This document shows, piece after piece, positions 21,421-25,337 of a stretch of 64,000 nucleotides of DNA (its first letter is position 1; every line of letters starts with the position of its first letter). Below the pieces are notes generated by a model that was not told the DNA's origin, did no database searches, and saw only the letters and a list, made by a program, of their open reading frames with translations. Made by a program: the position numbers and the translations under genes. Source of the DNA: an uncultured Candidatus Saccharibacteria bacterium (GTDB lineage: Bacteria > Patescibacteriota > Saccharimonadia > Saccharimonadales > Saccharimonadaceae); contig CAZXEG010000001.1 of the NCBI GenBank assembly GCA_964639835.1, forward strand, positions 1,223-65,222, in the 5' to 3' direction.

Positions 21421-22641
21421 TTACCCTTTAGGGAGAATTTCGGTGAGGAATTCGGGCAAGTAGACTTTCTTGATACCGTCTTGGTTTTCTCCCCAATCTC
21501 TATCTAGCGTGAGGACGTATTTCGGGTAGTTATCTGAGATGCCTGCAAAGGCGCCGAATTCTCGCTCGATGGTCTTTGGTTCGGTCATGGTGAGTGCGAC
21601 TTGCAAATATAGTTTTTCTCCGTTTTTTTCGGCGACAAAATCGATTTCTTGCTCGTTGTTCTTGCCCACGTATACGGTGTAGCCGTACGAAATTAATTCG
21701 TTATAGACTATGTTTTCTAAGATTCCCGGTTGCATCGAAGCGTGACGGCCGTTGATAGCGAATAGGAGCCCGATGTCGCCGAGGAAGATTTTTTCATTTG
21801 ATTTCAGGATGGCTTTGCCGCGGAGATCGTATCGGTGGGCTCGCGAGATTACGTAGACTTCTTCTAGCCAGTCTAAGTAGTTATAGACTGTCTCGGGTTT
21901 GAGGGTGCGCTGTTCTGATTTGAGGTAGTCGATGATAGACTTACCGGAGAAATTGTTGCCGATGTTGTCGAAGATGTATTTGATGACCCGGGATAAAAGT
22001 TCTGTGTTGCGGATGCCTTTACGCTCTACGAGGTCTTGAAAAAGGATGGAGTTATAAATGTCTTTGACGATGCCGTCGCTCTGCTCTAGGGTGTAATCGG
22101 CGATATGTACAAGCGGGAAGCCACCTCTTTGCATGTAGGTAGCGAACCCTGCGTCGAGACTGCTTACTGCTCGCCCCTTGGCGCGCTCGAATGCTAGGTA
22201 TTCTGAGAAATTTAATGGTAATACGCGGATGTTGATGTACCTACCGGTGAGCAGAGTCGATAACTCGCTGGAAAGTAGCTTGGAGTTGCTACCAGTGAGG
22301 TAGATGTCTACGTCCTTTTCGGCGAGGAGACCGTTGATGACGATTTCCCAGTTTTCGATGTTTTGGATTTCGTCGAAGAGCAAGTAGTGCCGGCCGTCAC
22401 CCGCAAGAATGCCGTCGATGAGACGCATAAACTCTGCTTGCGTGCGAACGTTTAAATATGAGTATTGCTCAAAATTGATATGCACAACTTTTTCGGTGGG
22501 GACGCCGCGCTTTACGATGAGCTCCTTGACTTGCTCTAGTACGGTGGACTTACCGCCACGGCGGATGCCCACTAAAATTTTAACTAGTGGCTGATCGATG
22601 TAGGGCTCGATTTTCTTTAAATACAATGGTCGTTCTATCAT
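21421..22641 (-). CDS. AAA_14 / DUF4143-type ATPase
   Basis: GIRRGGKS, LLFDEIQ, YLTGSNS, RGGFP, ENIVYNEL, EIDFVA..LQV PD-(D/E)xK-like tail. Confidence 0.85.
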   Translation of the reverse strand: MIERPLYLKKIEPYIDQPLVKILVGIRRGGKSTVLEQVKELIVKRGVPTEKVVHINFEQYSYLNVRTQAEFMRLIDGILAGDGRHYLLFDEIQNIENWEIVINGLLAEKDVDIYLTGSNSKLLSSELSTLLTGRYINIRVLPLNFSEYLAFERAKGRAVSSLDAGFATYMQRGGFPLVHIADYTLEQSDGIVKDIYNSILFQDLVERKGIRNTELLSRVIKYIFDNIGNNFSGKSIIDYLKSEQRTLKPETVYNYLDWLEEVYVISRAHRYDLRGKAILKSNEKIFLGDIGLLFAINGRHASMQPGILENIVYNELISYGYTVYVGKNNEQEIDFVAEKNGEKLYLQVALTMTEPKTIEREFGAFAGISDNYPKYVLTLDRDWGENQDGIKKVYLPEFLTEILPKG

Positions 22642-22691
22642 GTTACTCCTTAAAATAATTTTAGCAAAAGAGGGCGCTTATGTCAAGTTTT

Positions 22692-22749
22692 TCACCCTAT
22701 AGGGTAAAAATTTGGGGATTTTGTGGTGGCTTTTACCTGTATAGGGTGA
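22692..22749. promoter_or_regulatory. Nested dyad between divergent promoters (operator candidate)
   Basis: TCACCCTATAGGGTAAAA ... TTTTACCTGTATAGGGTGA; left arm itself palindromic (ACCCTATAGGGT). Confidence 0.5.
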
Positions 22750-22771
22750 CAAATTTTGATGAAAAAAGTGG

Positions 22772-22800
22772 TTGCGGGGGCGGAGGATTAATGGTACAAT
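22772..22800 (+). promoter_or_regulatory. Promoter of the FISUMP gene
   Basis: TTGCGG-17-TACAAT. Confidence 0.65.
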
Positions 22801-22806
22801 GGTAGT

Positions 22807-22960
22807 ATAAAAGTTTGACGACTAAGTGTACATTAGATGGAATTAGCGAGTTAGTTCGACAGTATAAATCAGCACCAGTAGGTACTATTTGCTGTTGAAA
22901 CGCTTGTTCTCAATGACACTTAGTCGTCAAAGCCTACGGGTGCTGATTTGTATGTTGGCC
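22807..22960 (+). ncRNA. Highly structured 5' leader (candidate cis-regulatory RNA)
   Basis: 22814-22829 pairs perfectly with 22916-22931; about 22857-22882 pairs with 22933-22957; the two helices cross. Confidence 0.5.
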
Positions 22961-22997
22961 TCGTGAGAAAATTAATAAAAACATAGGAGGTCCGGAC

Positions 22998-25337
22998 GTG
23001 AAAGTCATACATACAAAATTTGGTTATCGCTGGGTAGCGAAAGTGCTGGGAGGCTGTGGGATGCTGGCGCTTTGTGCGCTGGGCGTGCTGGAGGTGCTTG
23101 GTGGTGGCAATGCTTATGCTACGAACATGGACTTTTCGATCAATGTCAGGCCTTCTGCTAGTATTACGGTCCCTTCTAACCCGGTGAATTTGTCTATTAA
23201 CCCTGGGAGTAGTGCCTTTAGTTCTGCTACACTGAATATAGAAGCTGGGACTAGCTATGATAATGGCTATACTATTATTATGCAATCCGGTCATAATGCT
23301 AGTGAGATTAGTAACTATAATCTTGTTAATACTACTGATTCTAGCTCTGTAATTCCTATGTTAACTACTACTTATACGGAAGCCAACTTCCCTGCTAACT
23401 ATTGGGGAGTAAAAGTAGGTAGTGGTAACTATGGTGGTATCGGTACTAATGGAGCCATCACTTCTACCAATACTAAAGGTGGTAGTACTGTACCAGTAAC
23501 TCTAGCTGCTAAAGTAGACTATACTAAACCAGCTGGTGATTATACTACTACACTAAACTTCTCCATTGTAGCTAATGTAGATAGTAGTGCTAGTATCACT
23601 AACTTTACCTACATGCAAGACGTTGCAAATCTCTCCTCTACCGAAAGACAGGCAGTAGTAGATGGCATGGTAGAATCAAAGACCTATACCCTAAAAGATA
23701 GCCGTGACCAGCAAGATTATACCATCGCCAAACTTAAAGATGGAAAAGTGTGGATGACGAAGAACTTAAATCTGGCTGGTGGCACTACCCTAACTTCTGA
23801 TGATACTGATATGCCAAGTGGTTATGCTTTGCCTACTGCTAATGGATTCCAATCTGGCAATAAACTCCCAGCTTCGGAAACCATTTCAAGCGGTACTACG
23901 CTGGCAAATAGTTCAGCATTTAGTGACAATGCCACCGCGTATGTTTTTAATAGCAATAACACTACTTGTAGTTCATCCTCGCCTTGTTATAGCTATTATT
24001 CTTGGGCTACTGTTACCCTTGGCTCCGGAACGGGGGTCAGTACGGATGGCGAGGATGTTCCTTATAGTATCTGCCCGAAAGGCTGGAGGTTACCTACATC
24101 AGGCAACCAAATCACCGACAATGCCAATAACTGGAAAAAAGGCGACCTCTATGCCCTCGGCACTGCATACGGGGCCAACTTGGAAAACAGCTACTACGAT
24201 AACTCCGTTACGACTGGCGCCAACTTCTATAATAATGCCGGGCCGGACGCCACCGTACCGAACTTTTTACCTGCAGGCAACTATTATTCTAGTTTGTTTG
24301 ACTATGGTGGTGACTATGGACTATATTGGTCATCCACTGTTAGTTCGTCTACCAGCGCATACAATCTTCACTTCACTTCCAGCAATATGGATTCAGCCGT
24401 AAGTAGTGATCGTAGTACCGGCAGGGGGGTTCGTTGTATATTGGACGCAAACGCGCCGACGATTGAGGATCTTGGAACGATGCAAGATTTTGCTAGCCTC
24501 GATACCTACGACAAGCAATCCGTCGTAAATAGCATGGCTATGGAAACTAATTACACTTTGAAGGACAGCCGCGACGACCAAGATTATACCATTGCCAAGT
24601 TGAAAGATGGTAAGGTCTGGATGACTAAGAACCTAAACCTAGCTGGCGGTACGAAGCTTAACTCTACCACTACGGATATGGCGGATGATTACGTGATGCC
24701 AACTGCAAATGGGTTCCAGGCCGATAATACCTTGCCAGCTTCGGCTACCAAGAATACGGGCGACAATAACCTGACTGATAGTACTCAGTTCAACATTAAT
24801 ACTATGGCGTACGTATTTAACTCTGGTACTACATCGGGTTGTGGTGCGAGTGGGCAGAACGTGCCTTGCTATAGCTACTATTCCTGGACGGCGGCGACAC
24901 TTGGCTCTGGCGTAGACATTTCGGCTGATGGTACGAGTGCGTCTTATAGCATCTGTCCGAAGGGCTGGAAATTGCCAACTGCGACGACAGAAGATGTCTC
25001 GCGAGACAATGGTGGCTACACCGGTGGTGATTTCTACAAGCTGATTATGCCTTATATGAATGGCGCTACATCGCTTAACCGAGGCTACTATGACAATACT
25101 AACCCGAATCCATTTACTACGAATGCTGGTCCTGGCACGCTTGCGTCGTTCCTGCTCGCCGGCGGCTACAATACCGGCTTGCTCTACAATGGAGGTTCCA
25201 TCGGCGACTATTGGTCTTCTACTTCTAGATCTGCTACCTTTGCCTATAGTCTCACTTTCCTTTCTGACGTCGTGTATTCAGCCAATATCGCTTATCGCGC
25301 CGTCGGTAGCTCTGTTAGGTGTATGCTCGCGGATTAG
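22998..25337 (+). CDS. Surface protein with two Fibrobacter succinogenes major paralogous (FISUMP, CLec-fold) domains; candidate DGR target
   Basis: Duplicated YTLKDSRDxQDYTIAKLKDGKVWMTKNLNL, CPKGWxLP, YWSST...VRC; GTG start after AGGAGG. Confidence 0.85.
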   Translation: MKVIHTKFGYRWVAKVLGGCGMLALCALGVLEVLGGGNAYATNMDFSINVRPSASITVPSNPVNLSINPGSSAFSSATLNIEAGTSYDNGYTIIMQSGHNASEISNYNLVNTTDSSSVIPMLTTTYTEANFPANYWGVKVGSGNYGGIGTNGAITSTNTKGGSTVPVTLAAKVDYTKPAGDYTTTLNFSIVANVDSSASITNFTYMQDVANLSSTERQAVVDGMVESKTYTLKDSRDQQDYTIAKLKDGKVWMTKNLNLAGGTTLTSDDTDMPSGYALPTANGFQSGNKLPASETISSGTTLANSSAFSDNATAYVFNSNNTTCSSSSPCYSYYSWATVTLGSGTGVSTDGEDVPYSICPKGWRLPTSGNQITDNANNWKKGDLYALGTAYGANLENSYYDNSVTTGANFYNNAGPDATVPNFLPAGNYYSSLFDYGGDYGLYWSSTVSSSTSAYNLHFTSSNMDSAVSSDRSTGRGVRCILDANAPTIEDLGTMQDFASLDTYDKQSVVNSMAMETNYTLKDSRDDQDYTIAKLKDGKVWMTKNLNLAGGTKLNSTTTDMADDYVMPTANGFQADNTLPASATKNTGDNNLTDSTQFNINTMAYVFNSGTTSGCGASGQNVPCYSYYSWTAATLGSGVDISADGTSASYSICPKGWKLPTATTEDVSRDNGGYTGGDFYKLIMPYMNGATSLNRGYYDNTNPNPFTTNAGPGTLASFLLAGGYNTGLLYNGGSIGDYWSSTSRSATFAYSLTFLSDVVYSANIAYRAVGSSVRCMLAD

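Follow-up and report, generated by a model that had tools for sequence, protein, structure and literature searches.

The 64,000-nucleotide stretch of DNA analysed here (contig CAZXEG010000001.1, positions 1,223 to 65,222; hereafter the window) comes from an uncultured Candidatus Saccharibacteria bacterium and carries, directly upstream of a gene for a secreted protein with a Fib_succ_major (FISUMP) domain, a 5' leader in which two long RNA helices cross. This leader is a member of a large, uncatalogued and strongly conserved family of Saccharibacteria 5' leader RNAs. As to what the leader does, we give moderate credence to the view that it is a transcription attenuator, that is, a terminator/antiterminator leader made of interleaved competing helices.

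Two crossing helices in the window leader

The initial annotation proposed a perfect 16-nt pairing that extends into a long rod, and a second helix (22857–22882 with 22933–22957) whose strands lie in swapped order relative to the first. All of this was borne out. The first helix, H1 (22814–22829 with 22916–22931), is a perfect inverted repeat of 16 nt with 100% complementarity, and the minimum free energy (MFE) fold of 22800–23010 computed with RNAfold contains its extension into a rod through CATT/AATG, GAATTAGCG/CGCTTGTTC and TTCGACAG/CTGTTGAA. The second helix, H2, was found at 22863–22882 with 22933–22952, where it spans 20 nt at 90% complementarity (18 Watson–Crick pairs, one G·U pair and one A·G mismatch). 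If the strands of H1 are called A and A' and those of H2 B and B', their order along the RNA is A-B-A'-B', so the two helices cross, with a single G (22932) between A' and B'. The fold has an MFE of −68.2 kcal/mol, compared with −45.6 ± 4.1 kcal/mol for 200 shuffled sequences (z = −5.6), none of which folded as low.

Judging from the position of the −10 element, transcription in the window probably starts near 22806–22808, which would give a leader of about 22806–22997, and the rod begins 13 nt after the −10 element. The parts of the leader and their positions are collected in Table 1.

Table 1. Parts of the leader and of the start of its gene in the window.
Feature	Position	Strand	Basis or remark
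−35-like hexamer TTGCGG	22772–22777	+	3/6 to consensus, 17 nt upstream of −10; below detection in a consensus scan
Extended −10, TGgTACAAT	22792–22800	+	read from sequence; −10 hexamer at 22795–22800
5' tail GGTAGTATAAAAG	22801–22813	+	A-rich tail also in paralogs
A, 5' arm of H1, outer rod stem	22814–22829	+	inverted repeat and covariation
L1, 5' strand of inner rod P2	22830–22862	+	fold; sequence variable
B (TATAAATCAGCACCAGTAGG), 5' strand of H2, at rod apex	22863–22882	+	about half of the B core paired there
L2, 3' strand of inner rod P2	22883–22915	+	fold
A', 3' arm of H1	22916–22931	+	inverted repeat and covariation
B' (CCTACGGGTGCTGATTTGTA), 3' strand of H2	22933–22952	+	GC core and U-rich run, like the 3' half of a terminator
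GGCCTC, anti-Shine–Dalgarno-like element	22957–22962	+	pairs with GGAGGTCC in the fold
Shine–Dalgarno sequence GGAGG	22986–22990	+	7 nt before GTG start
Gene for secreted protein of 779 amino acids with Fib_succ_major (FISUMP) domain	22998–25337	+	open reading frame; Pfam PF09603, E = 2.4e-16; signal-peptide-like N-terminus
Post-start motif GTCATACATACAAAA, form (G)GTCATACA	23004–23018	+	complementary to 22947–22955; recurs in paralogs

A family of leaders kept by covariation

The initial annotation did not recognise the leader as a known riboswitch, and neither did Rfam. When the window was scanned against Rfam 15 at the gathering threshold, only tRNAs were found; at E ≤ 10, the region 22600–23100 gave chance matches only (mir-2797 scored 21.7 bits, its cut-off being 74, and tRNA 15.9 bits); and at E ≤ 0.01, nothing was returned for nine loci with leaders of several subtypes. 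Full-text literature searches likewise turned up no such RNA for Saccharibacteria or Patescibacteria.

The sequence of the leader drifts, and its relatives were found only by structure-aware searches. A blastn search with the window leader against five genomes of the same genus gave no match, and the exact B...B' pattern of the window's subtype had none in 200 genomes of the family. Of two structural models, the one built on H1 (R1) was too narrow at family level, and the one built on H2 (R2) worked there and also matches the antisense strand and plain terminators. Within the genome itself, blastn finds three paralogs of the window leader. All four leaders have a TGnTAnAAT promoter and an A-rich tail, and each has a perfect H1 whose sequence is wholly different from copy to copy, while B (AAATCAGCACCnGTAGG) and B' (CCTACGGGTGCTGATTT) are conserved and the A'–B' junction measures 0–2 nt. 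In further paralogs B and B' change together (CAGCACC/GGTGCTG, CGGCACC/GGTGCCG, CGGCATC/GGTGCCG with G·U pairs, and TAGG/CCTA to CAGG/CCTG). Covariation among paralogous leaders had been suggested as a check in the initial annotation, and on this comparison both helices prove to be kept with compensatory changes.

Larger comparisons used two alignments made with plain MAFFT, one of 11 leaders (A2) and one of 36 B...B' segments (A4). In A2, the pseudoknotted structure is paired in 93.9% of the cells, a value reached by none of 500 shuffles and compared with 33–43% in slid controls; 21 of its 36 pairs have changed on both sides (12/17 in H1 and 9/19 in H2), and RNAalifold finds H2 unprompted. 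In A4, H2 is 91.2% paired (slid controls 37–49%; 0/500 shuffles as good), and both partners have changed in 18 of its 19 pairs. H1 and H2 are thus real and kept by covariation.

Two further sets of leaders were compared. The curated set contains 33 leaders chosen by eye. For the wide set, one genome per species was scanned for ACGGCACCGCA-N40-70-GCGGTGTCGTTTT, that is, for the sequence of H2 only, which gave 88 stretches (79 of them usable), nearly all from Saccharibacteria metagenome-assembled genomes of animal guts, termites and other sources. H1 is present in each of these 79 leaders, with a duplex energy no weaker than −15 kcal/mol and medians of −28.2 kcal/mol and about 22 bp. The gap between A' and B' is 0–3 nt throughout the wide set, and only one of the 33 curated leaders departs from this. 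A −10-like hexamer stands just upstream of H1 in 61/79 wide-set leaders, and 4–20 nt upstream of it in 31 of the 33 curated ones (with a TG extension in 21), and in the wide set an open reading frame (ORF) starts at a median of 45 nt after B'. Conservation in the wide set is centred on B (AAAACGGCACCGCAUAAACA), the A' end, the loop of the local hairpin T described below, the B' core and the U-run, and the interior of the rod is free to vary. The 24-nt sequence of B/B' is near-identical across many species and almost identical among the copies within a genome.

In two loci from other species of the genus (L041:1430–1500 and L071), the stretch from B' to the Shine–Dalgarno sequence holds another B-like copy (AGATCGGCACCTGCAGGC), a possible third, downstream partner for B'.

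An RNA element rather than a DNA element

Long, near-perfect inverted repeats that differ between copies, such as the H1 arms, bring to mind an element that acts as DNA, either a segment that flips between the H1 repeats, giving phase variation, or a mobile palindromic element. Adhesin-like and restriction-modification genes, the targets here, are classic phase-variable genes, and an inversion would swap B for a copy of B', abolishing H2. We nevertheless consider this reading extremely unlikely, on a comparison of strands and on the diversity of the arms.

In the curated set, the sense strand gives the more stable rod in 28 of 33 leaders (−53.4 versus −45.8 kcal/mol), and the more stable H2 in 28 of 33 as well (−31.2 versus −25.9 kcal/mol). 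In folds computed without G·U pairs, isolated 1×1 mismatches are G·U in 61 cases and A·C in 18 (p = 1e-6). The wide set was used to repeat this strand test independently of the selection by eye, and here the sense rod beats the antisense rod in 74 of 79 leaders (p = 1e-13), with 116 G·U against 14 A·C mismatches (p = 4e-21). Given this asymmetry of G·U over A·C, selection acts on the sense-strand RNA and not on a DNA palindrome. The position and orientation of the element are also fixed, in the order promoter, leader and gene, in sense, and its arms are too diverse for a single site-specific recombinase (68 of the 79 5' arms in the wide set are distinct, with a mean pairwise identity of 0.38). 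A flipped form was seen in none of 237 leader loci, which is a weak test since these loci were picked by the unflipped form. An inverton was rejected on the diversity of the arms and on the one transcribed orientation that the mismatch asymmetry favours; a mobile palindromic element, of the kind of miniature inverted-repeat transposable elements (MITEs) or Rickettsia palindromic elements (RPEs), was rejected because the copies of such an element would share their terminal arms and insert in varied places and orientations, unlike the leaders, and because selection is at the RNA level.

Geometry and energetics of the competing states

The segment between A and A' is strongly structured in most of the curated set (median z = −4.8, with z < −2 in 29/33 leaders; mean −30.7 kcal/mol). 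A' abuts B' at the base of the rod and B lies at its apex, where the apical hairpin of the rod-state fold takes up about half of the B core; a complete rod therefore excludes a complete H2. A geometric argument leads to the same point, as a junction of 0–3 nt between A' and B' cannot span the full rod. With both helices covarying and their full forms incompatible, the phrase "two-state switch or large pseudoknot" in the initial annotation turns out to be a fair description.

Mean energies over the 33 leaders are −57.6 kcal/mol for the rod state, −50.7 kcal/mol for the nested fold with H2 forced and −23.0 kcal/mol for the H1 duplex; in the window these values are −52.6, −45.6 and −23.4 kcal/mol. 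A crude estimate for H1 and H2 together falls below the rod state in 33/33 leaders, before any pseudoknot penalty; such a pseudoknot is beyond what ViennaRNA can score. Were the inner rod P2 to melt, H1 and H2 could stack coaxially on a continuous A'–B' strand, with L1 and L2 (about 25–60 nt) as the connecting loops. On these models, the rod is probably the first fold during transcription, and the state with H1 and H2 may be the equilibrium fold.

Terminator features and the attenuator model

In six related genomes, model R2 also picks up short hairpins, which are plain bidirectional terminators with the pattern A5-(T)GGCACC-loop-GGTGCC-T5 (AAAAATGGCACC-loop-GGTGCCATTTTT). H2, with its A-tract, GGCACC core and U-tract, appears to have the form of this lineage's ordinary terminators. 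In alignment A4, four or five tract pairs (columns 9–12) have their A in the 5' strand and their U in the 3' strand (AU in 21–32 of 36 segments, UA in at most one), and the pairs next to the tract swap freely. Such polarity points to a requirement for the U-tract and not for pairing.

B' also takes part in a second, local structure. The hairpin T, a canonical intrinsic terminator, arises when the last 5–6 nt of A' (GACACC) pair with the B' core (GGTGTC) across the tetraloop TTGC; T5–6 follows. It is present in 13/13 leaders from other genera, in 67/79 of the wide set and in 12/33 leaders of the window's genus. B' thus has two possible partners, B (giving H2) and, in relatives, the end of A' (giving T); the end of A' likewise has the choice between B' and the 5' end of A. 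The form of H2, so like that of intrinsic terminators, together with the local terminator that shares B' in most relatives, suggests that the output of the leader is termination and not masking of the ribosome binding site (RBS). The leader lies between promoter and RBS (in the window, between the −10 element at 22795–22800 and the GTG at 22998), and it offers a pairing that is mutually exclusive with a terminator, as one would look for in an attenuator.

In the attenuator that we propose, the helices would compete in a chain: H2 would have P2 or its apical hairpin as one rival and T as the other, and T would in turn contend with the base of H1. The rod, folding first as RNA polymerase proceeds, would keep B from B', and the capture of B' and of the A' end by H2, by T or by an intact H1 base would decide whether the polymerase stops before the surface-protein gene. 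In the window's subtype (C1 type), H2 with its U-rich tail would be the sole terminator-like helix, and the rod would be the antiterminator. Candidate triggers include a factor with affinity for the conserved apical loop B, RNase III cutting the rod, sister leaders pairing in trans, and a choice of start site that shortens the 5' arm of H1. In 13 of 31 leaders, only 4–5 nt part the −10 element from the start of H1, so that the start point could trim the arm that competes with T.

There are several points that weigh against an attenuator. As a terminator, H2 would have a "loop" of 50 nt and should form slowly, and the rod should always form first, which without a trigger would give constitutive read-through. 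The logic also seems to depend on subtype, H2 being the antiterminator where T is present and the terminator where T is absent. In the window's own subtype, T has only −5.9 kcal/mol and its U-run is interrupted (GATTTGTATG); this subtype seems to have lost a good local terminator, leaving the long-range H2 as the only helix of terminator form. Finally, the search for a candidate regulator gave none: there is a single NusG gene in the genome, and no cold-shock domain gene was found in it (the genome being 94% complete). A specialised NusG paralog (RfaH/LoaP/UpxY type) and antitermination by a cold-shock protein were rejected on these two grounds. The likeness of some B copies to an ops element (CGGTAGG) is confined to a few paralogs and was taken as chance.

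Alternative outputs

Could the rod simply protect the message? As a constitutive stabiliser or processing element, it would guard the mRNA against 5'-end-dependent decay, or be cut by RNase III, and so set its half-life; H1 and H2 would stack as one long 5' helix, either through the pseudoknot with P2 melted or with an excised apical hairpin pairing with B'. The rod starts a few nucleotides from the probable start site, H1 comprises 16–25 almost perfect pairs, rod energies average −52 to −58 kcal/mol, the strict junction of 0–3 nt suits coaxial stacking, and the crude energy estimate given above favours the stacked form before any penalty. An RNase III gene is present (contig C3), and the leader has the features of an RNase III substrate (in the window, the 16 bp of H1 and the extension stacked on it; in the wide set, 22 bp as the median), its cleavage being a prediction. 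What stabilisation leaves unexplained is the polarity of the U-tract, the canonical local terminator T of most relatives and the near-identity of the 24-nt B/B' across many species, and we regard it as possible but on the unlikely side. A translational switch, in which the state of B' decides whether GGCCTC masks the RBS, has in its favour that the fold of 22800–23010 pairs GGCCTC (22957–22962) with the GGAGG region (GGAGGTCC) and 22947–22955 (TTTGTATGT) with its complement at 23009–23017 (ACATACAAA), and that GCCTCG-like elements lie downstream of B' in paralogs. Its weakness is that predicted accessibility does not depend on the state: over 20 leaders, the Shine–Dalgarno sequence is predicted to be unpaired at 0.53 with B' free and at 0.52 with B' removed (p = 0.77), in the window the value is 0.20 in both states, and no state-dependent change in the accessibility of the AUG is predicted. 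Moreover, the stretch that separates B' from the start codon shows no consensus structure, and in other genera B' lies a few nucleotides from the RBS without such an element. The pairing of GGCCTC with the RBS put forward in the initial annotation hence stands as a prediction for the window copy, in both states, and lacks support as a general feature; it may well mask the RBS of this copy, yet it is not a conserved state-dependent output, and a switch of this kind is very unlikely.

Two more readings concern how the competing helices might be flipped. Terminated leaders could act as small RNAs whose apical B pairs with B' of nascent sister leaders, coupling the regulon in trans. B and B' are almost identical among copies and species, the genome has about 17–18 copies, and a trans partner would be free of the limit that the rod sets in cis by parting B from B'. 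This cross-talk is wholly inferential, however, and the subtypes of B and B' covary copy by copy in the window's genus, which speaks for pairing in cis; we consider it very unlikely. Slightly more probable, if still unlikely, is the prospect that the exclusivity of the switch is geometric: a rigid rod of 70–170 nt would hold apart the two arms of a terminator-type helix, and the switch would be flipped without a dedicated regulator (by start-site choice, RNase III or B loops in trans). If so, the trans route would couple some 17–18 surface-protein genes (elsewhere, restriction-modification genes) into one bistable programme, resembling phase variation without any change of the DNA.

Comparison with known leader RNAs

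With the terminator/antiterminator leaders (trp- and pyr-type, bgl/sac with a ribonucleic antiterminator (RAT) and terminator, and transcriptional riboswitch platforms), the Saccharibacteria leader shares its place next to the promoter, in most relatives a GC-rich hairpin with a U-tract before the ORF, and a mutually exclusive chain of anti-antiterminator, antiterminator and terminator. Unlike them, it has no leader peptide, recognisable aptamer or known site for a binding protein; B sits at the apex of a 70–170-nt rod and is complementary to the terminator loop, 3' arm and U-tract, so that the helices are interleaved (A-B-A'-B'); and the copy number is very high, at about 17–18 in 745 kb.

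Countertranscript-driven attenuators are found on plasmids, such as those of pT181 repC, pIP501 and pAMbeta1, and prgQ/Anti-Q of pCF10. Here the common ground is a 5' "preemptor" pairing (in our case, the 5' end of A with the 3' end of A') against a terminator that uses the same 3' segment, and an exposed apical loop as a natural target for an RNA partner. In contrast to those systems, no conserved antisense promoter is present and the element complementary to the terminator is part of the same sense transcript; the genes, too, are chromosomal surface-protein and restriction-modification genes and not replication genes.

It is also known that 5' stem-loops stabilise the mRNAs of S-layer proteins, ompA and aprE, as RNase III processing does for the cspA leader of S. 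aureus, and E. coli pnp is counted among the leaders processed by RNase III. A long stable stem at the 5' end of a highly expressed surface-protein mRNA, with a duplex of a length suited to RNase III, is common to these and to our family; a second, conserved crossing helix and a terminator-like module are absent from them. T-box leaders likewise combine a long 5' rod with a subsequent terminator/antiterminator choice, and B' contains GUGGUGCC, which resembles the T-box core (GGUGGUACC). A T-box was rejected because there is no match to RF00230 at E ≤ 10 and no specifier-loop architecture, the genes are not amino-acid ones, and B pairs with B' in cis. A riboswitch was rejected as well, since it is the terminator and the two H2 strands that are conserved, the rod interior is variable, and no Rfam aptamer matches. 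Rfam has no counterpart to the architecture of the Saccharibacteria leader, in which a terminator-type helix and a long, putatively antiterminating rod interleave.

Copies in the genome and downstream genes

The genome (745 kb in 53 contigs) has 17 sense copies of the leader according to model R2 and about 18 according to a structural scan. All copies with a readable downstream gene lie between a promoter and a large secreted surface protein of two or three related families. Contigs C15, C50, C53, C43, C9 (at its 3' end) and C8 (at its 5' end) stop 30–300 nt past a leader, and the true number of copies may exceed the count, as the paralogous surface-protein genes evidently break the assembly. 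One copy (C5:33938–34281, minus strand) has no ORF of at least 40 amino acids for about 380 nt downstream; it adjoins, divergently, the sole NusG gene (C5:34818–35126).

Contig C24 (8592–8937) bears a near-duplicate of the window's FISUMP gene (window 22760–24000). From B' onward the two are identical over the stretch read, with 94% identity over about 1 kb, and their H1 arms and inner rods are wholly different, a contrast that suggests modular exchange or rapid turnover of the rod.

Among the 56 downstream proteins of the wide set, there are 13 with Fib_succ_major, five with Listeria–Bacteroides repeats, three Tsp45I-type restriction enzymes and at least three DNA methylases; other domains include DUF4352, OmpA, Lcl_C, type IV secretion system (T4SS) pilin and cadherin-like ones. 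The association of the leader with FISUMP genes is therefore old and widespread. In several Saccharibacteria (loci L150–L229), the leader precedes genes for a Tsp45I-type enzyme, for N6/N4 and D12 methylases and for RAMA proteins. Taken together, the regulon covers the variable portion of these small genomes that faces the host and serves defence.

Other features near the leader

The upstream neighbour of the leader is a divergent gene for an AAA_14/DUF4143 ATPase. Between this gene and the leader promoter (22685–22756), a palindromic box occurs in two copies, TTTTCACCCTATAGGGTAAAAA at 22689–22710 and TTTTACCTGTATAGGGTGACAAA at 22731–22755, which look like operators. A strong minus-strand promoter, TTGACA-17-TAAAAT (22686–22658), overlaps the first of them.

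Downstream of the leader, a motif (A)GGTCATACA follows the start codon of surface-protein genes (in the window at 23004–23018, and at L040, L046–L048 and L050–L052). It is read in two frames, ATG GTC ATA CAA and ATG CAA GGT CAT ACA, occurs directly after the promoter in homologs without the leader, and is complementary in the window to a stretch just past B'. In one gene subtype (C4:23500–23720, C9:12150–12460, C11 and the C6 paralogs), the first ATG with GGTCATACA is followed by about 270 nt that are open in frame. This stretch looks like RNA structure, with a long-range helix CGTACTACGCCACGG/CCGTGGCGTAGTAG, the hairpin GGTCTAAG..TTAGACC and GCACCAGGCCTGGTGC, a palindrome resembling B, and a second in-frame ATG after it opens a normal signal peptide (MRIAGISS...). 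In this subtype the true start codon may be the second ATG.

Significance

Saccharibacteria are epibionts with reduced genomes and very few recognisable regulators, and to our knowledge almost nothing has been established on the control of the surface proteins that presumably mediate their attachment to host bacteria. The leader is a candidate for the main control device of this variable, host-facing set of genes. Cultivated Saccharibacteria with genetic tools reportedly exist, which makes the question of its function testable. Should the geometric or the trans principle prove true, the family would represent a new way of building an RNA switch.

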